Shown here: piece by piece, positions 3,447 to 52,576 of the stretch
Position numbering within the stretch: the first letter of the stretch is position 1
Layout: every line of letters begins with the position of its first letter
Assembly: GCA_038087875.1 (NCBI GenBank)
Contig: CM075987.1
Span: forward strand, 20,400,001 to 20,464,000
Direction: 5' to 3'
From: Malacoraja senta
Lineage: Eukaryota
Length of the DNA stretch: 64,000 bases
The notes under the pieces: model-generated
Seen by the model: only the letters and a program-made list of their open reading frames with translations
What the model was told of the DNA's origin: nothing
The model's database searches: none
Made by a program: the position numbers and the translations under genes

Positions 3447-3914
3447 GTGAGTGAGATCATCATCGGCAGGGAACCGGTCAATAAGTGTTGAAGCAACTCT
3501 GCCGCGATGGCTCCATCTGCAGCAAAAGACAGTGATTACTCCTGGGGTAGATGGGTATACTGTTGGCCCAGGAGTGGCAAGCATCTATACCATCCTTACC
3601 CACAACCCCCTCTCCATCTATTCTTCACTTTCATCCTCCCCGTCCTTGCCACCCTCTCATCTCTATTCCATCTCCATTCCTAACTCCCTGTCTGACCCCC
3701 CCCCCCAACCCATTCCATCCCCCCATTCTTCTTCTCTATCACCATCTCTCTTCCCTTTCAATAATCTCCCTCGTGGCATGCCATGAGCTTATCCTTTCTC
3801 CCCCATCTCCACTCCTGACCCCCTTTATTCCCTTGGCATACCTTGGTATGAAAGTGATGATGATTGAAAGGCTAGGGTGGGGGGAACCACTTAATCCATT
3901 TTTATTTGACACAG

Positions 3915-4039
3915 GAATGACAAGAGGATTTTCTTGAAAACACAGGAAAAGAGAGAGATACAGTTTCTTCTGTCAAACCTCCGGTCCTACATGCAGCACA
4001 TGGAGAGGTACCCACACTCCCTGCTTGTAAAGTTTCTCG
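3915..4039 (+). CDS. PIP5KL1: PIP5KL1 coding exon (T-NDKRIFLKTQEKREIQFLLSNLRSYMQHMERYPHSLLVKFL-G)
   Basis: Acceptor tttgacacag, donor GTAAGT at 4040. 125 nt, phase 2/1. Contains the FLKT lysine and PHSLL motif; overlaps ORF 3934..4245. Confidence 0.95.
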
Positions 4040-5427
4040 GTAAGTGGCAGGAGGAAGATTTCAGGGCTAAACATTTTAATAAAAGTCCTCCTACAGGGGC
4101 TGTCGAGGGGGTGTGTTTGACTGAAAGATACAGACTGGGAGATCCAACCTGCAACTCCAGCCTATATTACGTGATCTCAGTTAGGATGGACCCTGTCGGA
4201 TTGGAAGAGTCTACCTGCTCTCCAATTCTGAGTGTTGCGCACTAAACCACAATTTTATGAATGTAGCAAAGATAGAGGCTTCGTAAACCAACTAATCCAA
4301 GGTGGTGTTTCAGCCCCAAGTAAGCTGCCCACCTCAACCATTTACAATTTTCCCAAACAGCATCTCTACGTCCTCCTCTCTCTCGAGTATTGACGTCTCC
4401 TTAAATCAATCTAGGCTATTCATTCAGGACATGATGGCACTGACAACTCCAACATTCATAGCCAACAAGATGACTCCTTCTTACTCAGTCGCAAACCGGG
4501 CATTGAAAGTAGCTGTTAGATGGAGACTTCCAAGATTTGAATCCAGAGATGTGTGTAATCGAAGCTTGCTGTATTTCCAGGAGGTGTCATTCAGAGGGGT
4601 GGGAGCATCAGGGCCTGGTGGGTTGGGGGGTGGGAGCAACATCTGAATATTGTCGTTCCAATGTGCCTTTTGCCCTTGTCCTTCTTGGAGTTGGAGATTA
4701 TCGGGGACTGTTGGATCTTATTAGTCTTGGTTGCAGCCCACCTAGGAGAAGTTAAAATCTATAAATAAGGCCACAAGTATCTTAAACAGTGTTTCAAGAA
4801 TCACATCTATGTGGGACCTTAATTAATACCTATGCTAGAACACAATGTCAGATTTAAAAAATGTATATAATTAGGCATACCTCTGACTTCTCCGTATCAT
4901 CCAACATTAATATATTTATTTATTCTCCATGCCACCATTCACTTGAACTCCGTTAAATACTTTTTCCTGTGTAGATTTGCACTAGGTCCTATTCTGACTT
5001 GCAGCAATCCCTCACTTGGTTGCATCCATCTATTTCCCTAAAGTCTGGTCCAGGCCCACAACAAACCGCAGTTGTACGATGCGTAAGGGAAACTGGTACC
5101 AATCATTTCATGCCGAGGACATTAGACTTAGACTTAGATTCCTTTATTGTCATTCAGACCTTTCGGTCTGAACGAAATTTCGTTGCCTGCAGTCATACAT
5201 ATAATAAATAACAAAACACACAATAAACACAAATTAACATCCACCACAGTGAGTTCACCAGGCACCTCCTCACTGTGATGGAGGCAAAAGTCTTAAAGTC
5301 TCTGTCTCTTCCCTCTTTGTTCTCCCTCTGCATCACTGCAGGAGTCCCTCAGGGTTGCGGTCTGATTTGAACCACCTTCAGCTTCTTCATCAATGACTTG
5401 CTTCAGTCATTGCCTCAGATGTGGGGG

Positions 5428-12601: not shown

Positions 12602-12973
12602 GTATGTAGTCACTTTAAGTGTTAATTTACACATAAAATAAGTGAACCTCCACTGACAATTTTTGTTAGGTCTTCAGTCTACATTTTTGTATTGTGTTGG
12701 ACTAATTACTGCTTTTGCCGGTCTGCACATGACCAAGGTAACACCATTCATCTTACAGCCATTCAGACTGTTTCCACGATTCCTCAGGGAAGAGTGAGAG
12801 GAATTGAACGCAACTTTTAGGTGGAATAAAGCTTTGAATGCATTAAGAAGGCATTTGCATTCTTAATGTCCTGAACCACTACATTTCCTCTCACCAACCT
12901 TCTAAACCACTTAGCCCTTGAGTGTGACAGCAATTACTGTTAAACTGTTAACCAACGTTACTGTTTTTCCCAG

Positions 12974-13086
12974 GTATGACGTCAAGGGTTGCCAGGTTAG
13001 TCGCTGGACAGAACCTGTCCCCGAGGGTAGCAACATCATTGTGGTTCTGAAAGACATGAACTTCGAAGGGAGCACGATTGGCCTGG
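12974..13086 (+). CDS. PIP5KL1: PIP5KL1 coding exon ([39 protein letters not shown])
   Basis: Acceptor tttttcccag, donor GTAAAG at 13087. 113 nt, phase 2/1. DxKG and LKDxNF PIP-kinase motifs. Confidence 0.95.
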
Positions 13087-14448
13087 GTAAAGATCAATTT
13101 TCAGTGCTTGTATATTCATCTTCCTGTGCCAATTCAACCTTCTCTTTGTAAATCTCCATAAAGTGACTGCTGTAGCTGTTAACTTTGATACTAATGTTAT
13201 GATCTCATTGGGCAAATGGGAATTGCTGCTGAATTCCAGGCCACCCCTACTGTAACCTGAACTTCCACAATTAATTTCCTTTGTAAATTGTTAAATCTAC
13301 AACTTGAGTTCAAAAGATAAAAACTAGTGATCTGTGAGAATTAATAATGTTCAGTACTAGTTATTAATTCAAGATTCAAGAGTTTATTGTCATGTGTCCC
13401 TGATAGGACAATGAAATTCTTGCTTTGCTTCAGCACAACAGAACATAGTAGGCATTGGTAACCCAAGGTAAACTGATGATGCTGTTTGCTAACTGATCAA
13501 CTAATGCACTTCACGGTTTAAGGAAGTACTTGATGTAGGAGTGATGGTGTTTATGCAGTGAATGCTGAGTCCTCATGTAAAGAGGGAAGAGGGGGCACAT
13601 GAGCAACCTCTCACATGTTCTAACTACTGGGTGTGACACCCAACCTGGAACAGTTTATAATTTACAGTTAGATCTGAAGCTGGGTGGATCATATGCCAAA
13701 CCAACCCCTTCTCCACCGTTCCTTGGGAAGTTATTCCCCTGGGCGGGAAGAACCAAATTCCCATCAGTTTGGAGGAAAGATGATTTTTCCATTATCTTTT
13801 TGACAACTGATAGCATTCAAGAGCAGCTGCGATAATCTCCATCTGAATAGATCATTTAATGTACCTAATCAACCCAAGGTATTCCCTGTGTACATTGTAA
13901 AGGAGTTGTGCAAAAAATGAATGACCAGAAGCTTGGTCGAGGAGAGAAGCTCTACTGTTTATGTTAAAGGTGCAGAGAGGGAGATGACTGATGCAGGGTT
14001 TTAGTGTGGGAACTCCAGAGGATGGAGCCCAGCAACTAAACTGAATGGAGCCAGTGGTGCAGAAAATCACATTAGGGGATTCAGGAGGTTGGAGGGAGGA
14101 GGTGAGAGTTCGGGAAGGATTAGGACCATGAAAAGCTTATGAGAATTTTACGGCTCAAGGAATGCAATGGGGCATTGCAATTCCTGCCTAAGAACCAAAG
14201 ACAGACACAAAATGCTGGAGTAACTCAGCGGGACAGGCAGCATCTCTGGAGAGAAGAAATGGATGACATTTCAGGTCGAGATCTGCCTGTCCCGGTGAGT
14301 TACTCCATAACTTTGTGTCTATCTTCAGTTTAAACCAGCATCTGCAGTTCCTTCTCACACTGCCTATGTGCCAGTTGTGATCACCCTAACTGTACTGTCC
14401 TTTTGATCTTTCTACGTTGCTTTGGATTCCTGAAACGTTTTGTTCCAG

Positions 14449-14611
14449 ATCAGCAACGGTCCTGGCTTGTGCGGCAAGTGAACATTGATACGGAGTATCT
14501 CCGGGCACTGAACGTCCTGGACTACAGCCTCCTGGTGGCCCACCAGCCCCTGCACCTTGACGAGCGGCAGCAGAGCTGGTCCTTTGCAAACGTCATTCTC
14601 CGGACCAAGAA
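14449..14611 (+). CDS. PIP5KL1: PIP5KL1 coding exon (D-QQRSWLVRQVNIDTEYLRALNVLDYSLLVAHQPLHLDERQQSWSFANVILRTK-K)
   Basis: Acceptor ttttgttccag, donor GTAAGT at 14612. 163 nt, phase 1/2. DYSLL motif. Confidence 0.95.
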
Positions 14612-14639
14612 GTAAGTAGCTTTAGAGACACAGGCCATC

Positions 14640-15549: not shown

Positions 15550-16024
15550 AGGGCCTGTCCCACTTGGCCATCATTTGCACCTCATTTACGCGTCATATGT
15601 AAAATAGGTCGACGCGCCATCGCACGCAAATCATGTGTCATCACGCCGTCTGGTGCCCATAACGTCATTAGAATACCCTGCGCCGTGCGGCGATGCATGG
15701 TTACGCACGGTGACGTAACCATGCGTCACCACGCGATGCATGTGAGACGCCAGGATGACAGCGTGCGACGCCAATGCGTCAGCGTGCGTACCCAATGCGT
15801 CATCGTGCGTACACGATACATCACGCAGGTGGTGCGCGAGGATTTCGTGCAGCACAAAATCCTGGAGTGCCGCGCGATACCGCACGCAACTCCACACTCC
15901 TCCACGCCTCTCCATGCGCCCGTCCCGCGGCACCCACACACTACCCGTGCGTCACAACGCGACGACCACATTTTTGGAGGTCGCGTAAAGGGCGCGCAAA
16001 TGACGGCCAAGTGGGACAGGCCCT
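15550..16024. mobile_element. Non-autonomous DNA transposon (MITE), PIF/Harbinger-like
   Basis: Terminal inverted repeats AGGGCCTGTCCCACTTGGCC / GGCCAAGTGGGACAGGCCCT flanked by TAA and TTA; very CpG-rich interior; interrupts a SINE tail. Confidence 0.8.
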
Positions 16025-16492
16025 TTAGATAACACAGAAGTGGTGTGAATGGGTGATCAACAGTTGGTGTGGACGGTGGGACGTAGAGTCTGTTTCCATA
16101 CTGTATCTTGTAATCAATCAAAATACAAAGTCAGGAACTCAGCGGGTTAGGCAGGATCTGCGGAGGGAATGGACAGACAATGTTTCAGGTCAGGACCCGT
16201 CTTCAAACTTTGTCTGTTCATTCTCTTCACAGATGCTGCCTGACTAGCCGAGTTCCTCCAGTACTTTGTGTTTTGCTCATGATCTCTGCATCTATTGAGT
16301 CTTCATTAAAGCAGCTTATCTGACCACTGCTCCGTGACTGCGTGTGGAGCCTCAATGTTACAGAATTGGCCAGGTTTCCCTGTGTTATTAAAGTGGGTGT
16401 GTTTGAAAGAAATAATTAATTGACTGTGTAGCACTTTGGGATGCATTCAGGTGAAGATAAGCCTTAGATAACTCCATTCCCCTCTCCCACAG

Positions 16493-16916
16493 ATCGATGA
16501 TCAGTGGAGGCAGCCCTAGTCACTCCACCGGGACCCCAGTTCCAGGGTTAGTGGAGGAAGAATCGACTGTGCCGGTGTCTGAGGTTGTAAGTGGCACAGA
16601 CGAGTGCCACGTCAAGGAGGTCCCCAAGGCAACGTTGTCCTCAGTAGACAGCAGTGGGTCGGACATGGAACTGACCGAAGTGTCCGTGCAGAATCGGCGA
16701 CTGCTGCCCAGATCCAAGAACTCCTTGCACATCATCGACGGGGCCCAGAGCCGCTACTTTGTGGGAATCATCGACGTCTTCACCGTGTACGGGTTCCGCA
16801 AGAAGCTGGAGTACCTGTGGAAATCCATCAGATATCGAGGCCAGTCCTTCTCCACAGTCCATCCTGACAAATATGCCAAGCGACTGTGCCAGTGGGTGGA
16901 TGACCACACAGTTTAG
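16493..16916 (+). CDS. PIP5KL1: PIP5KL1 last coding exon (...QNRRLLP...[28 protein letters not shown]...[22 protein letters not shown])
   Basis: Acceptor cctctcccacag (AG 16491-16492), phase 2, stop TAG 16914-16916; ORF 16497..16916. C-terminus resembles human RRLCQWVEAHTE. Confidence 0.95.
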
Positions 16917-29114: not shown

Positions 29115-29584
29115 AGGTTAATTCCCGGGATGGTGGGACTGTCATATGCTGAGAGAATGGAACGGCTGGGCTTGTACACTCTGGAGTTTAGAAGGATGAG
29201 AGGGTATCTCATTGAAACATATAAGATTGTTAAGGGTTTGGACACACTAGAGGCAGGAACCGTGTTCCCGATGTTGGGGGAGTCCAGAACCAGGGGCCAC
29301 AGTTTAAGAATAAGGAGTAAGCCATTTGGAACGGAGACGAGGAAACACTTTTTCTCACAGAGAGTGGTGAGTCTGTGCAATTCTCTGGCTCAGAGGGCGG
29401 TGGAGGCAGGTTCTCTGGATGCTTTCAAGAGAGAGCTAGATAAGGCTCTTAAAAATAGCGGAGTCAGGGGATATGGGGAGAAGGCAGGAACGGGTTACTG
29501 ATTGGGGATGATCAGCCATGATCACATTGAATGGCGGTGCTGGCTCGAAGGGCCGAATGGCCTCCTCTTGCACCTATTGTCTAT
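29115..29584 (+). mobile_element. CR1 LINE 3' fragment (young)
   Basis: ORF 29037 translates RLIPGMVGLSYAERMERLGLYTLEFRRMRG...ESRTRGHSLRI; tail ends cacctattgtctat. Confidence 0.9.
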
Positions 29585-31169: not shown

Positions 31170-31369
31170 NNNNNNNNNNNNNNNNNNNNNNNNNNNNNNN
31201 NNNNNNNNNNNNNNNNNNNNNNNNNNNNNNNNNNNNNNNNNNNNNNNNNNNNNNNNNNNNNNNNNNNNNNNNNNNNNNNNNNNNNNNNNNNNNNNNNNNN
31301 NNNNNNNNNNNNNNNNNNNNNNNNNNNNNNNNNNNNNNNNNNNNNNNNNNNNNNNNNNNNNNNNNNNNN
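31170..31369. other. Assembly gap (200 N)
   Basis: Run of n, with a poly-C tract on the left (about 31145-31169) and a poly-G tract nearby on the right (31622-31639). Confidence 1.
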
Positions 31370-32378: not shown

Positions 32379-33176
32379 CAATAGACAATAGGTGCAGGAG
32401 TAGGCCGTTTGGCCCTTCGAGCCAGCAACGCCAGTCAATGTGATCATGGCTGATGATCCCCAATCAGTACCCCATTCCTGCCTTCTCCCCATATCACCTG
32501 ACTCTGCTATTTTTAAGAGTCCTATCTAGCTCTCTCTTGAAAGCATCCAGAGAACCTGCCTCTACCGCCCTCTGAGGCTGAGAATTCCACTGACTCACCA
32601 CTCTCTGTGTGAAAAAGTGTTTCCTCGTCTCCGTTCTAATGGCTTACTCCTTATTCTTAAACTGTGGCCCCTGGTTCTGGACTCCCCCAACATCGGGAAC
32701 ATGTTTCCTGCCTCTAGCGTGTCCAAACTCTTATATGTTTCAATGAGATTCCCTCTCATCCTTCTAAACTCCAGAGTGTACAAGCCCAGCTGCTCCATTC
32801 TCTCAGCATATGACAGTCCCGCAATCCCGGGAATTAACCTTGTAAACCTACGCTGCACTCCCTCAATAGCAAGAATGTCCTTCCTCAAATTTGGAGACCA
32901 AAACTGCACACAATACTCCAGGTGTGGTCTCACTAGGGCTCTGTACAACTGCAGAAGGACCTCTTTGCTCCTATATTCGATTCCTCTTGTTATAAAGGCC
33001 AACATGCCATTCGCTTTCTTCACTGCCTGCTGTACCTGCATGCTTACTTTCATAGACTGATGTACAAGGACCCCCAGATCTCGTTGTACTTCCCCTTTTC
33101 CCCACTTGACGCCATTTAGATAGTAATCTGCCTTCCTGTTTTTGCTACCAAAGTGGATAATCTCACATTTATCCGC
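32379..33176 (-). mobile_element. CR1 LINE 3' fragment (young)
   Basis: ORF 32595..33053 translates KANGMLAFITRGIEYRSKEVLLQLYRALVRPHLEYCVQFWSP; (ctattgt)n tail at the 3' end. Confidence 0.9.
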
Positions 33177-37100: not shown

Positions 37101-39048
37101 GCGCTGTAAGGCAGCAGCTTTACCTTGGTGCCTACCAGAGCTCGGGGCTTCTTTCTGTTTGAATTATTCCCGCTGTAGTGTTTGGATTAGCTGCAGGAAA
37201 ATGGTGCTTCCAGGATCGTCCATTTCTGCTCCGTGCAGCCAGGGAATTGGGCAAGGCCCTTTTAGTTTTAAATCATTCAGTGGACTTCGCTGGCCATTAT
37301 CTTTGTCCTCTTGCTGTGCAATGTAATAGCTCAGAGAATGAAAACTGAAGTTGACATTTTTTAAAATGCACGCTCTTTGTCAGGGAATCTGTTTTGTAAT
37401 TATTTAGAATAAGTGACTGATGCAGAGATTGATCGATTGCCTCAGGGCTGAGCCAACAATTTTTTTCCTGCTTCTTGCGCCTGAACTTGTAAAATGGTGA
37501 CAACCACGGGGAATTGGGCAAGAGTCTTTTAGTTTCCAAATTGTTCAGTGAGGCATAATGTTGTCAGGAGGATCATCCAGTGCATGTTGTGCTGCTTGGT
37601 TAAACTTCTCACCCAGGTTGTTCATGTCTCTCGAAGCTTCTTCACATAAAATGGTTTATTTATTGTCACGTATACAGAGATATCGTGAAATGCTTGTACT
37701 GCAGGCTCTGCAGTCAAATCGTGCTATACACAATAGATCCTCCTTTGGAACTGCACGCAGAGAGTCACTAGATGCAACCTGCAACTTCCAGGTCTCTGAA
37801 ACGTCTGATCTTGGCCCAAGGAGAGATGCAATTTCTTGAATTCTCAGTTTAAGCTGGATCTGTCCTGACCTAGGGTGGTGTCTGTACGGAGTTTGTACGT
37901 TCACCCTGCAGCCGCGTGGGTTTTCTCCAGGTACACCGGTTTCCTCCCACATTCCAAAGATGTGTAAGTTTGTAGGTTAATTGGGCCTCTGCAAATTGCC
38001 CCTAATTGGATGTGAAAAATGGGATAACATGGACCTAGTGTACAGGTTGATGGTTGGTCGGCGTGGACTCTAGGCCTGTTTCCGCATTGAATCTCTATAC
38101 ATATCCTCACATCACTAGATGGATAAAGTAGGGGTAGGTCTAGCTCAGCACAGTGCCATCGGCTCCTTCCACTGTTGCACAGTGCAGCATTTAAAGAGAG
38201 AATTAAATGACTAGTTGAAAGATTTGCAGGGGAAAGAGTAAAGGAACAGTCTTTAATCAAGTGTCTGGATGAGATCAACGGGGAGAATCCTTCTCCTGAT
38301 TTTCTCTGAGAGAAGAATTGGTCCGAATGGTGTTGTAAAAACCAGAACTGTATTACTTTGTGCAGTTCAACTGTCAATAAACTGAAATTTGTAGACCTTG
38401 GGCTGAGTGTGGAAATGTCTTGTGCTAAACTGAAGGCAGGAAAATCTAGTGTCCTGTATTATCATTGATATATATATATATATAACCAAATGATGTAAGG
38501 AGAGTTTGTACTCTGTGGCTGTTACCTAGTTACTTTACAGAGGTCCCTAAAAGATTATTTTCTCTCTTCCAAAATTTGGATTGCACATAGATATTTTGAC
38601 ACAGAATTGGGTTGTTAGCCCATGATGCTTTTCTTCCACATCTACATAGATTTAAGAACAATTAAGTCTCAAATGGACTACTAATTCTAACTTTATTCCT
38701 AACGGAGATGAACGCTCAGAAATCCCGCCCACTCCAACATGAGTTGTCACACTTCAGTGCTTTCCTTGTACGTTGACTACTTTTTGGATGGGTTGAGAGA
38801 TGTGAGATGTGAAATGTCTTGTTGATCAATTTGATGTCCATCTGTCTCTTCCCCCAGAGTATGTATTTTTGGGCTGAGTGTATTTAAGATGGAATGTTTT
38901 TGACACTCATCATGAGCTGAAGTGAATTGCCTTGCATTTTGTCAGTGCGTAAAATGTTCCACGTCCACTGCATCCGATGAAAGCTGCTTAAAACAAATCA
39001 TTCTGCTAATCTTGTTTTGCACTGAACAATATTCTTTGCACAGGGTAG

Positions 39049-39144
39049 ATGAGGATGAGTCATCGTATTGATCGAGTTGCCGGTAACCCTGGTAACGTGC
39101 TTTTCAAAGATGGCGGCCTGGTTAATGGAACATTAATGAGAGAG
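39049..39144 (+). CDS. Candidate alternative first coding exon of SH3GLB2 (MRMSHRIDRVAGNPGNVLFKDGGLVNGTLMRE)
   Basis: 32 open codons from ATG 39049 (in-frame TAG immediately upstream) to a consensus donor GAG|GTGAGT at 39145. Phase 0 matches exon 2. Acceptor ttctttgcacag ends at 39043. Confidence 0.45.
39056..39117 (+). promoter_or_regulatory. Dense transcription-factor motif cluster: AP-1, two overlapping RFX X-boxes, YY1
   Basis: TGAGTCA 39056-39062; GTTGCCGGTAAC 39076-39087; GTAACCCTGGTAAC 39083-39096; AAGATGGCGGC 39107-39117. Apparently non-repeat sequence with several retained CpGs. Confidence 0.55.
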
Positions 39145-41263
39145 GTGAGTGCGGATGGTAAGCACTGGCCTCCTCACTACCAACAAGCAAGGCTTGTTTT
39201 CTGAACCCACTTTATTCCTGCTGGGGATGTTTAATTTTTTTCTACGAAGTATGCCTTTAGTTATTGTAGTTACTGCTTTAAATCTTATAGTTACCACTTA
39301 AAAACTTTGATAGTTGAGGTTCAATGGACAACACTGAATAGGGATGTTAACTGGGAAAGTTGTTACTGCACTTTTGTAGCTGATGTCGTCCCCCGTCCCC
39401 CCCCAGTGTATGGAAAAGTTGGGAAAGATCCAAAGAAATGGGGAGATATTGGGAGGAGGCTTATGCTGAACATTAATCAAGAGCACTAGGACAACTGGCC
39501 TGTTGTTCACTAGAATCAACCTGCTTTTGTGCATCATCGTAGCGGGACAGCACAGAAACAGGCCCTTTGGCCCACTGAGTCCATGCAGAACTGTTAACCA
39601 CTCATTTTGCATTAATCCCAGATTCTCACGAATTCTCCGCAGATTCTACCAATCACCTAGTGATCAATTAACCTACCAGCCCACACATCTTTGGGATGTG
39701 GGAGGAAACCGGAGCCCTCTGGGGAAAACCCATGCAGTACAGGGAGAACGTGCAAACGTGCCTGATTACAGCTGGGCAGAAACTGTCCCTGAATCTGGTG
39801 GTATGCGTTTTCAAACCTGTACCTCTTGCCTGATGGGAGAGGAGAGAAGAGGGAGTGTCTGGGGTGAGACTCGTTTGGTTATGCTGGTGGATCAAGTATG
39901 AGATTAAAGGTATTAAGTTTTAGTTTTGCGTGAACATTGCAAGTAAGCATCGTGCCTCTAGCCCAGACCCTTTTGCTATTGCCTAACGGGCTATTGGAGG
40001 GTGCACAAGCCTCCAATCCTCCCACCTTTCCCCCCATTCAGGGCTTGTTTGGTGTGAGACATGAGCACAAAATGCAGATTGATGCAATGATGAGGGAGCA
40101 CTGCACCATCTCAGATGCTGGTTTGTGGATGTGAGTTAAACTGAGATTCCATATTCTCTGTTGGATGGCCACAGAAATTCCAATGGCAGTTTTCCAATGC
40201 CTTCAACATTTAACCAAACCTAAAGAACCATTCTCAAATGTGCATCACTGAGTGACCCGCATTTAAGGACATCCTGAGGTTCTGGAAGCCACTGGATGTG
40301 CTGTTTTTCTCTTTGACTCTCTTCAGTCAGTTTGTTTAGTTAATTTGAAATTTGCGGAAAAGCAATTGTTAAAATGGAACTTTTTTGCAGCCCTTGCCAA
40401 AGATCAATATGTTCCCTGTGTGTATGTCCATTTTAGCAAATTAGTTCAATCAAACATCAGCAGTTGACTCCAGGGCATAAAGTCCAGAGATTGATTTCCA
40501 CTGATGTGATACTGGGTCTTTTTCAGTCGAATACTCAAAACTGCCTGTTCCGCATTCTCTAGATCCTGGTGCTTGCTGAGTTTAATGCTGATATTTTCAA
40601 TATAGAGAGAAAGGTAGGGTACATAAGTCTAAAGGAACCTTTCTATGTGGTATGACACATAGTTCTACCAGATGCTGGCATTTATTGACAGCAGTAACTC
40701 TTAACTGAAGAATATTGTTTGCGCTTTACCTCTGTTTATTTCTGTATGCAAGCACCAACTCAAGAGGCTGCAGATACTGTAGGCTAGAGATGGGAATGAA
40801 ATAGAACTTAATGTCTCCACTTGCTGACTTATGTGTACCATTAATGTCCAAAACTTCAACGTTTTTTATACCAATTAAAAAAAAAAACTTTTCAATTACT
40901 GAAATGAGTCATCGATAAATTTCATTTGAATGTGGGGAATGAAATGTTGCTGCGGTGAGATTATTTATGACTTTGCAGGGAGGTGTTGAATTTGTCGGTG
41001 CGGAGCTGTGTGATCTGGATTTCCCATGGTGTTTGAGTTAAGGGATTACACTGTCACAGTCACCACGTTGGCCCCACAGGAACTGAGGTTGAGCCTAGCC
41101 CTGTACATCAGGAGACGTGGTTGGGATTAATCTGGTGTTGAGTGAGAGGTTCTAGTATATCACCACCTACCCAGATCTTTGGCTCTGGGGCTCCCACAGG
41201 ATCTGGTTCAAATATCAGCCAAGGCTGTATATCTGGATTTGCGTTGCATGCAAACCCTTTAAT

Positions 41264-49299: not shown

Positions 49300-49441
49300 T
49301 TCACTGAGGAGAAGCTGGGTCAAGCAGAGAAAACTGAGCTGGATGCACACTTTGAGAATCTCCTGAGTCGCGCCGACAGCACCAAGAACTGGACAGAGAA
49401 GATCCTCCGGCAGACTGAGGTCTTGTTGCAGCCCAATCCAA
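49300..49441 (+). CDS. SH3GLB2: Endophilin-B2 coding exon 2 (FTEEKLGQAEKTELDAHFENLLSRADSTKNWTEKILRQTEVLLQPNP-S), N-BAR domain
   Basis: Long pyrimidine tract ending cctgcccag, donor GTAAGA at 49442. 142 nt, phase 0/1. HFENLL..ADSTKNWTEKILRQTEVLLQPNP matches endophilin B2 better than B1, as recalled. Confidence 0.93.
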
Positions 49442-50027: not shown

Positions 50028-52447
50028 TTACTGTCTGTCTTCTCAGCAGGTGGTGGTGCTTATCACCGGAGTAACAGGGTCGAGAGGTGGAAAATCCCAT
50101 TGCATCTTTTTGTGAAGTTAGTGTTGTGGAAGATGGCTCTGTTACTACGGCAACATGGCTGCTTGTTGGATATTGCTCGTGAGCCATCAGCTGTACGAAT
50201 GGGTAGAATGACTTAATAATGTGCTTATCACAAAGCAGCCTGCAATGGCGCAACAAAGAGATTGTCCCAAAGCTGTCCACTATTAGCATCTCACAGACCA
50301 TCTATTATATTAAAAATATATAACTCGGTCACTCAACAGTAATAAAAATAATTAAGATACCATATTAAATGCCTTTTTGTTGTGGACAAATGTTTGCACA
50401 TAAAGGTATGTGTCATGTGACTGCAGTGTGTGGCTGGATATTTTGTCAACTTTAAATAGACATTTGTGGAGCTTGCCAGACAGAAATGATCAGCAGCTGA
50501 CATCTAAGTCTTCCACATCCATGTGTTTCCCACCAACTAAACCTGATCTGTCTGGTGAACTCCAGAGTTCTGACTTTGACTTTCCCTCAAGGACATCATA
50601 GATTCTGCTGCTGAGGCTCTGCTAACTCTCCCTCTCTCTGCAACCCCCTCCAGCCCCACCATCCACCGCAAACTCTGCGTTGCTCCAGTTCTGGCTCTTG
50701 CTCTGTGTATCCCAATCTCCTTTCATTGCCCAAGTCCTAAACGTTCCCTGAACATTTCCACCATATTATTATCTCTCTGTCGCTTTCTCAACTGAAACAT
50801 GTCCCTTGGACTGAGGAACTGGTCTCACCCTGATATTGCCTTGTGTGGGTTGGTTTCAAATTGCATTTTGTTCCGTGCCTTGGGTGTGTTTTGCCATTAC
50901 AATTGTGAGAAGCTGTATGGGTGACACTCATTGTGTGGTAAGCCTGGCGTTGAATGAATTGTACTTGTTACTGTTTTGCAATTTCTCATCAATATTCAGA
51001 TCCTGCATGTATCAAGTTCCAAACACACAGCAGCCCCTTGAAAGTTGTTTGACCCTTTAAAATGGGGAAGATTCAGGGAGGTGTTTATAATCATAAAGTA
51101 AATAAGGAAAAACTGCTTCTAGCGATATATTGGTTGCAACCAACGAACACAGATTCAAAGTGATTTTCCAAAGAGACAGAAGGGAGATATGAAGTGTTTA
51201 TGTACACAGTGACATGGTTTTACTTCTGAACAGGATCTGTGTGTTGTTGGCCATGCTGACGTTAATTGTCTATCCCTGCTTGTTCCAAAATTGTGGAGGC
51301 AGCTGAGAGTTAGCTACATTAGTGGAGCTAGAGTTATATATAAACAGACTGTATTATATTTCCTTCCCTGAAAGATGTTGGAGAACTAGATGGGTTTTAC
51401 AACCATCCAGTTTTCAGGTTTACAATTACAGAGACGAGCACTTAGAATTTAAGATTTGTTTAATTTCTTATATTAAACTCCCTTGCATGGTGGGCTGTGA
51501 AATCCCACGTTGGATGGTCTGGAACTGAGTTTGGGTCCTTTTACCCACTAGCACTGGAGATAGTCTACAGGAGAGTCGCCAGGATTAATTCCAGGGATGA
51601 GGAGGTTGTCCTACCGAGAGGGGCTCAACAGTTTGAGTCTGTATTCCCTGGAGTCGGGAAGAATGAGGAATGATCTTATTCAAACGCATAAGATCATAAG
51701 GGGGTTTGACAAAGTAGATGCTGAGGTGCTCTTACTGGTGGGATAGTCATGGACAAAGGCACGTAGCTGCAAAATGAGGGACCAGTCATTTAAAGCTGTG
51801 CATTTTGTAAAAATCTTGTCCCTATGGATGTTGAATCTCTGGAATTCTCGGTCCCTGTGGGTGGTGGAAGGCAAATCTTGAGATAGATTCAAGGTGGAGA
51901 AAGATAAATATGTGAAGATCACGAATTGATGGTCGCGAGGAACTGGCGGGCTTCAAGAGGTGTTGAAGCCGGCATAGATCAGCCATGGTCATATTGGCTG
52001 ATCTGTGCAGACCTCAACTCCTCTTCTGTGGGGCTGAGTGGCCTAAACCTGCTTATGTGTTCTTGTGAAAGTTTGAAAGCTTAAACGCAACAGTCCCGTA
52101 CCTCAATCTAGAATGTCCTATCTGACAGATTGACGGAAGCTGTTTCATCGTTTAAAAGGGAATTGGATGGATAGTTGATAGGAATAATTTGCAGGGCATG
52201 GAAAGGGGCTGGGGGACTCTGCCTTTCTGGGTAGCTATTTCAAAGAACTGGGCCTTCTGTGTTGTGTCGTTCTCTAGTGTGGAGAGGAGGTTTCTAACTC
52301 CACGTTGAGGAGAGATATCTTCACAGGCTAGGATGCCATGAATAGTGTCATTTGATTCAGGGAAAAGGGAGACATGTGTGGTATATTGTTTTTAAAGCAT
52401 TTGGCTGGTTAGCAAGCAGTCACTAATCAACTCTCTACTCCCTGCAG

Positions 52448-52576
52448 GTGCGCGAATTGAAGAATTTCTTTATGAAAAGCTCGATCGCAAGATTCCCTCG
52501 CGGATCACCAATGGGGAGCTGTTGGGCCAGTACATGGTCGACGCGGCAAGTGAATTTGGTCCTGGGACCCTTTATG
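52448..52576 (+). CDS. SH3GLB2: Endophilin-B2 coding exon 3 (S-ARIEEFLYEKLDRKIPSRITNGELLGQYMVDAASEFGPGTLY-G)
   Basis: Acceptor ctactccctgcag, donor GTGAGC at 52577. 129 nt, phase 1/1, continuing exon 2 in frame. Exon 4 not seen in the window. Confidence 0.93.

Follow-up and report, generated by a model that had tools for sequence, protein, structure and literature searches.

Results

An exon-like unit upstream of endophilin-B2 exon 2

We analysed a window of 64,000 nucleotides (nt) from Malacoraja senta (C11:20400001-20464000 of a 1.94-Gb assembly; positions below are those of the window), in which a 101-nt exon-like unit at 39 kb lies upstream of exon 2 of a plus-strand gene and ends at a consensus 5' splice site (Table 1). 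Judged by the likeness of its predicted peptides, the host gene is that of the N-BAR protein endophilin-B2 (SH3GLB2) of a batoid-like fish. An earlier sequence-only reading had taken the unit for an alternative first coding exon, which would give endophilin-B2 a new 32-residue N-terminus without helix 0, or else for a poison exon. According to an excerpt of PMC11799418, helix 0 of endophilins accounts for the initial binding to the membrane.

The closest annotated proteins were those of skates (Leucoraja, 205/225 aligned residues), followed by other rays and then by sharks, and the assignment of this DNA to an elasmobranch therefore stands. Eight endophilin-B2 exon matches were found on one contig, the remaining exons following downstream on the same contig. 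The exon 2 peptide is 100% identical to that of many chondrichthyan endophilin-B2 proteins, and in all of the best 120 exon-2 homologues, bird variants included, the sequences change or end exactly before FTEEK, which confirms the phase-0 boundary at the start of the exon.

Table 1 Features of the endophilin-B2 5' region and of the unit at 39 kb (window positions)
Feature	Position	Strand	Remarks
PIP5K-domain gene, exons	3910-4242, 12915-13148, 14334-14612, 16461-16913	+	Pfam
Assembly gap, 200 N	31170-31369		only gap between upstream gene end and exon 2
Acceptor-like site gaacaatattctttgcacag	39024-39043	+	...ttctttgcacag ends 39043; possible branch point ctaat at 39006-10, 34 nt upstream
Exon-like unit, 101 nt	39044-39144	+	sequence read
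32-codon ATG frame MRMSHRIDRVAGNPGNVLFKDGGLVNGTLMRE	39049-39144	+	ends in phase 0
Block conserved in P0121	39055-39180	+	39/42 codons identical; extends 36 nt past donor
AP-1-type heptamer TGAGTCA	39056-39062	+	11 in window, 13.45 expected
X-box match, 0 spacer, GTTGCCGGTAAC	39076-39087	+	sole site in window, 0.15 expected
X-box match, 2-nt spacer, GTAACCCTGGTAAC	39083-39096	+	2 in window, 0.15 expected
Exact YY1-type 11-mer AAGATGGCGGC	39107-39117	+	1 exact site in window
Short upstream frame MAAWLMEH, 8 codons	39110-39136	+	ATG inside YY1 motif; TAA 39134-36; translation putative
Last in-frame ATG, ATG AGA GAG (MRE)	39136-39144	+	in phase with exon 2
Consensus 5' splice site GAG/GTGAGT	39145-39150	+	7.97 bits
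Endophilin-B2 exon 2 (FTEEKLGQAEK...LLQPNP)	49300-49441	+	phase-0 start; donor CAA/GTAAGA
Endophilin-B2 exon 3 (ARIEEFLYEKLDRK...)	~52448-52576	+	boundaries approximate

Anatomy of the unit

On re-reading the sequence, all letters and coordinates that had been reported for the unit proved correct. The 32-codon frame, which is directly preceded by an in-frame TAG (39046-48), ends in the phase required by exon 2 at 49300, as had been claimed. Also as described, splicing into the unit after a phase-0 exon 1 would read GGT AGA TGA from 39044, with a stop in the third codon. Near its 3' end the unit holds a short frame of eight codons; its TAA stop and the following ATG overlap as TAATG, and from that ATG the MRE codons run on in the phase of exon 2.

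The unit is single copy in the assembly, its sole match being itself, and it belongs to none of the repeat families within the window. A search of the whole window against Rfam gave no match at the gathering score and one chance-level match near the unit. Among the sequencing runs listed for the 121-nt stretch around the unit, none that contains it is recorded as RNA; six runs with no kind on record, from three organisms, contain all or roughly half of nine words sampled from it, which counts neither for nor against transcription. About 160 nt upstream, a TATA-like tatttaa overlaps a second AAGATGG core (38882-38894), and several short ATG frames lie between this position and the unit.

A compact group of promoter-type motifs precedes the donor

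Following the overlapping X-box matches, the YY1 motif stands 10 nt on and the donor 28 nt further (38 nt from the start of the YY1 motif), all on the strand of the gene. The 11-mer AAGATGGCGGC binds YY1, as given in an excerpt of PMC4669652, and the X-boxes were sought with the consensus GTNRCC(0-3N)RGYAAC, taken from an excerpt of PMC5752003. The AP-1, X-box and YY1 sites claimed for the unit are thus all present, the YY1 and X-box matches above chance in the window, whereas the AP-1 site is at chance level and uninformative. The other 2-spacer X-box match of the window, GTTGCCGTAGTAAC, lies at 50141-50154 on the minus strand, in endophilin-B2 intron 2.

By chance, 149 kb should hold about 4e-4 cases of a YY1 site no more than 60 nt upstream of one of the nine strong donors, and for an exact YY1 site, two X-boxes and a donor of the top 0.1% gathered within 75 nt the expectation in the interval is about 4e-4 or lower. 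Genome-wide, an X-box followed within 0-30 nt by AAGATGGCG occurs three times, compared with none for the control; the other two occurrences are tandem GC-rich monomers of about 85 bp. The unit also retains CpG dinucleotides, with six in 110 nt and an observed/expected ratio of 1.11, which is reached by 2.6% of 16358 windows of 110 nt and compares with a regional median of 0.33.

An oriented YY1 site is usually found a short way downstream of the transcription start. All of the AP-1, X-box and YY1 sites are downstream of ATG 39049; because the promoter-type motifs lie inside the frame, a start site driven by them would exclude that ATG. The unit resembles TATA-less core promoters of the YY1 type in having the exact 11-mer on the strand of the gene with a consensus donor after it, and differs from them in lying outside a CpG island and in that its start site is only a predicted one. 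With RFX-type X-box promoters it shares two overlapping consensus matches, although neither is of the near-palindromic GTTGCCATGGCAAC type found elsewhere in the genome.

Conservation in one relative crosses the donor

Using the 51-residue read-through frame as query, we found a single relative among proteins of near length, P0121, which represents the frame of the unit in one relative and has 61 residues on a Logan contig of 1328 nt. Its frame is open from codon 3, where it starts, and continues unspliced across the donor. Beyond the conserved block, the next alignable piece (39251-39304) keeps 11/18 codons, compared with 39/42 in the block (Fisher p = 0.0054, one relative). The 70 nt in between, at 39181-39250, are absent from the P0121 frame, by an insertion here or a deletion there.

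Within the block P0121 differs by L18H and G23V, both of which alter amino acids of the exon part, and by one change in 12 intron codons. This gives 2/30 changed codons in the exon and 1/12 in the adjoining intron (Fisher p = 1.0, with very low power). As changes in the frame are as frequent as in the adjoining intron, there is no sign of coding constraint, and as conservation is equal before and after the donor, the conserved unit is not bounded by the exon edge. No change is visible in the AP-1 site, the X-boxes, the YY1 core, the MRE codons or the Val-Ser codons of the donor. The block looks to be under constraint in this alignment, in a pattern that a coding exon would explain less well than would a regulatory element or an exon flanked by conserved sequence. 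Regulated cassette exons usually have conserved flanking intron.

A minus-strand frame in the flank (39301-39510), searched against 1.84 billion representatives, gave only four weak, unrelated matches.

Exon-like features occur at chance level

Splice sites were scored with an approximate matrix applied over 164 kb. The donor ranks in the top 10 of 9143 GT sites, in agreement with its description as a consensus site, and the unit thus combines a competent 5' splice site with a phase compatible with exon 2. The acceptor had been called good; it scores -0.56 bits, is equalled or beaten by 1270 of 10256 AG sites (12%), and compares poorly with the 4.28 bits of the exon 2 acceptor. When acceptors and donors spaced 50-250 nt apart were paired on the plus strand upstream of exon 2, 14 pairs were at least as good as that of the unit, against 12 on the minus strand, which served as control. 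By chance, 8/9 strong donors are preceded, at a distance of 50-250 nt, by an acceptor as good as this one.

Open reading frames gave a similar picture. A phase-0 frame opened by an ATG ends at three of the nine equally strong plus-strand donors; it reaches at least 30 codons at one of them, the unit itself, and at 3/17 donors once the threshold is relaxed by 1 bit. The string AGGTRAGT was seen five times in the window, with 4.24 expected. The exon-like anatomy of the unit (acceptor, frame and ATG) is therefore at chance level. The hydrophobic moment did not discriminate between the new peptide and helix 0.

Alternative N-termini of endophilin-B2 in protein records

We surveyed the N-termini of the best 120 exon-2 homologues together with 32 further chondrichthyan cluster members, which gave 54 chondrichthyan records (22 + 32) from 17 named species plus one further record. 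The canonical exon-1 peptide was present in 22/22 chondrichthyans among the best 120 and in 32/32 of the further members. No longer protein matched the 51-residue read-through frame.

Other N-termini joined straight to FTEEK were carried by 16 of the best 120 homologues, and all named ones were birds. Examples are MTTSFLQ, MTTSSLQ or MASSSLQ in several species, MSKLQEEELDLK in goose and MRESSSPEPMQ in duck (bird-type records P0001, P0039-P0046, P0067, P0068, P0073, P0089, P0092, P0093, P0108 and P0109). The first three of these follow the pattern M[TA][TS]S[FS]LQ, and one bird form was found on 58 contigs. An alternative first coding exon without helix 0 is thus a known kind for endophilin-B2, as far as the annotation of bird proteins goes. 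As would hold for a product of the unit, a short N-terminus replaces the exon-1 peptide with its helix 0 at the same phase-0 boundary. The bird sequences have no likeness to the 32-residue frame or to MRE, and they stand in protein records of several species, whereas the form of the unit is in 0/54 chondrichthyan records. A bird-like alternative exon (M..S.LQ followed by GT) does not occur in the window, and a full-text search of the literature on SH3GLB2 and endophilin B2 isoforms listed no paper on alternative first exons.

The 5' end of the gene and its upstream neighbour

Neither the window nor the 100 kb upstream of it yielded the canonical exon-1 peptide (MDF[NS]VKKLAS.AGVFF.RA.Q) in motif scans. 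Two degenerate patterns for exon 1, run over the whole assembly, had zero matches; the first of them allowed for a serine codon of the TCN type only at the limit of its permitted mismatches. A comparable exon-2 pattern, used as positive control, recovered its single genomic target, and the degenerate-pattern method therefore works.

Upstream, on the same strand as endophilin-B2, the window holds the 3' part of a PIP5K-type gene recognised by Pfam. Its exon at 16461-16913 reaches the domain end and the C-terminus of solved PI5P4K/PIP5K kinases. This gene thus ends near 16913, which places the 5' end of endophilin-B2 between ~17 and 49.3 kb. No CpG island was found between 17 and 49 kb of the window. 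The canonical exon 1 probably lies in the N gap at 31170-31369; most likely, and most simply, the gap would hold both exon 1 and its CpG island, with the unit in intron 1. The earlier placement of the unit in SH3GLB2 intron 1 is correct as to the gene and as to a position upstream of exon 2; since the canonical exon 1 is absent from the window, the intron itself is one that we infer.

The gap has a poly-C run on its left flank and is itself flanked by inverted repeats (29326-29584 and 32381-32639, 92% complementary). A CpG-rich patch at 15550-16030 (GC 0.58, CpG observed/expected 1.35) was considered as a promoter and rejected: it has inverted ends (gggcctgtcccacttggcc ... ggccaagtgggacaggccc) and resembles a small terminal-inverted-repeat transposon.

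YY1 sites and X-boxes elsewhere in the genome

In the whole genome we counted 2762 copies of the YY1 11-mer and 160 of the reversed control. We compared the flanks of 59 sites on contig C1, sampled from the first 60 listed of the 2762, and found that 44/59 share them with another sampled site and are thus repeat-borne, one linked group comprising 24. The 17-fold excess, which had been considered as a promoter signal, was dropped on this result. The remaining 15/59, about a quarter of the sample, are singletons in unique sequence, which is still several times the control. The unit was itself a singleton among the 60 YY1 sites compared, and an origin carried by a transposable element was not found for it. 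Against the YY1 repeat families it aligned over the motif only, with scores of 22-31, where 22 is the score of the 11-mer alone. The repeat-borne sites, which lie at element ends or in tandem monomers of ~85 bp, have the same 11-mer and, in two families, a pairing of X-box and YY1; the unit is unlike them in being single copy and in sharing only the motif.

Several repeat copies (among sites L024-L083) have the 11-mer right at the edge of the shared sequence. Sites L021 (C6:65323566-65326603) and L023 (C1655:49365-52402) consist of tandem GC-rich monomers of ~85 bp with a CCAAT-like gattgg, X-boxes and AAGATGGCGGCG, and could represent a promoter array belonging to a mobile element or to a multi-copy gene. 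A second recurring pairing, in the order opposite to that of the unit, was seen at L027 and L029 (C1 near 5.69 Mb and 8.58 Mb), which share flanks and carry a near-perfect palindromic X-box (GTTGCCATGGCAAC or GTTGCCATGACAAC) ~20 nt after the YY1 11-mer. Sites L076 and L078, which have a donor 39 nt from YY1, were tried as kin of the unit and rejected; they are repeat-derived, and their likeness beyond motif and donor is slight.

Discussion

Taking these results together, we tentatively favour an alternative transcription start site with a first exon that ends at 39144. The exon-like parts of the unit are ordinary; mildly out of the ordinary are its regulatory appearance and the conservation seen in one relative. 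Observed here are the sequence features, the single-copy status, the conservation in one relative and the compatibility of phase; from these we infer a start site, splicing and translation as follows. The region 39055-39180 would be a small, conserved, single-copy module of promoter type in the 5' region of endophilin-B2, most likely in intron 1. Transcription would start inside the unit, at about 39060-39105, between a few and some tens of bases before the YY1 site, and the resulting short alternative first exon would be joined by splicing, with its end at 39144, to the start of exon 2 at 49300. ATG 39049 would be missing from this transcript, which would hold the 8-codon upstream frame followed by ATG 39136. 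Its product, if any, would be MRE-FTEEK..., with three new residues instead of 32 and without the helix 0 of exon 1.

A number of observations weigh against this interpretation. The motif cluster is a post hoc pick, made by a reader scanning for anything notable. Since most of the sampled YY1 sites are repeat-borne, the genome-wide excess of the motif says little about promoters, and 6/15 of the singleton sites are GC-rich and CpG-rich, unlike the unit; three of these six have long frames starting at the motif ATG, as expected of real promoters. The 501-nt context of the YY1 site in the unit has a GC content of 0.40 and a CpG observed/expected ratio of 0.51, with no CpG island. As evidence the X-box match counts for little, since genome-wide the 2-spacer consensus does not exceed its reversed control (4395 vs 4536). 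G23V in P0121 points to a substitution in the tenth base of the YY1 11-mer, and the case for conservation comes from this one relative, which may be a close or a distant one, from amino-acid-visible changes only and from 60 codons. Finally, the proposed new N-terminus appears in none of the 54 chondrichthyan endophilin-B2 records.

Chance is possible, if unlikely, as a full explanation: the intron would be an ordinary one without function, in which a donor, a frame and transcription factor words coincide, and the conservation would reflect local variation in rate between close species. This would accord with the near-equal numbers of splice pairs on the two strands (14 vs 12), with phase-0 ATG frames at 3/9 strong donors, with AP-1 and AGGTRAGT at their expectation, with an X-box consensus that is not enriched genome-wide and with the roughly ten chance pairings of YY1 and a strong donor expected per genome. 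No CpG island, annotated isoform or matching protein turned up in the searches made. It accounts less well for a combination of YY1, X-boxes and donor expected ~4e-4 times or less in the interval, for a CpG ratio of 1.11 against a median of 0.33, and for a block with 39/42 codons kept next to a flank with 11/18.

We consider it distinctly unlikely that the unit is an intronic enhancer or factor-binding platform of RFX, YY1 and AP-1 type, serving endophilin-B2 or a neighbour, to which donor and frame would be incidental. Conservation that continues at the same level for 36 nt past the donor (1/12 vs 2/30 codons changed) is what such an element could show, as are a motif cluster that is real, retained CpG, and neither a CpG island nor an annotated isoform. 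It leaves unexplained why a consensus donor should stand on the same strand, at a distance from the oriented YY1 site that is typical of first exons.

The proposal of the sequence-only reading, a start upstream of 39049 and a 32-residue N-terminus in place of helix 0, is very doubtful. Between 39049 and the donor no stop interrupts the frame, whose phase fits exon 2; in P0121 it is open from codon 3, and in birds alternative first coding exons join at this same boundary. However, all promoter-type motifs lie downstream of the ATG, and P0121 begins at codon 3, not at codon 1, and reads through the donor. The changes in the exon alter amino acids, at the rate of the adjoining intron, and a frame of at least 30 codons at a strong donor is within chance (1/9, or 3/17 on relaxed scoring); neither the 54 chondrichthyan records nor longer proteins contain the peptide.

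A poison cassette exon between the canonical exon 1 and exon 2, of the class coupled to nonsense-mediated decay, would fit the early TGA, which comes as third codon when the unit follows a phase-0 exon 1, the strong donor and the conservation into flanking intron, as is usual for regulated cassette exons, and is nevertheless hardly credible here, where its inclusion would be hypothetical, the acceptor is weak (-0.56 bits), 8/9 strong donors have an equal one upstream by chance and the canonical exon 1 could not be placed.

Returning to the alternative start site, the finding as it stands is a candidate. If it is true, full-length endophilin B would have a natural BAR-only partner in an isoform without helix 0. 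One further, improbable and frankly speculative, version of this is that rays and skates have an intronic X-box/YY1 promoter outside a CpG island, from whose transcript re-initiation at TAATG would yield MRE-FTEEK..., a protein without the membrane-inserting helix 0 that could pair with full-length B1 or B2 and modulate membrane insertion in ciliated cells or germ cells. A second promoter, if conserved in a cartilaginous fish, would point to more than one origin of endophilin-B2 without helix 0 and would also offer a simple test case.

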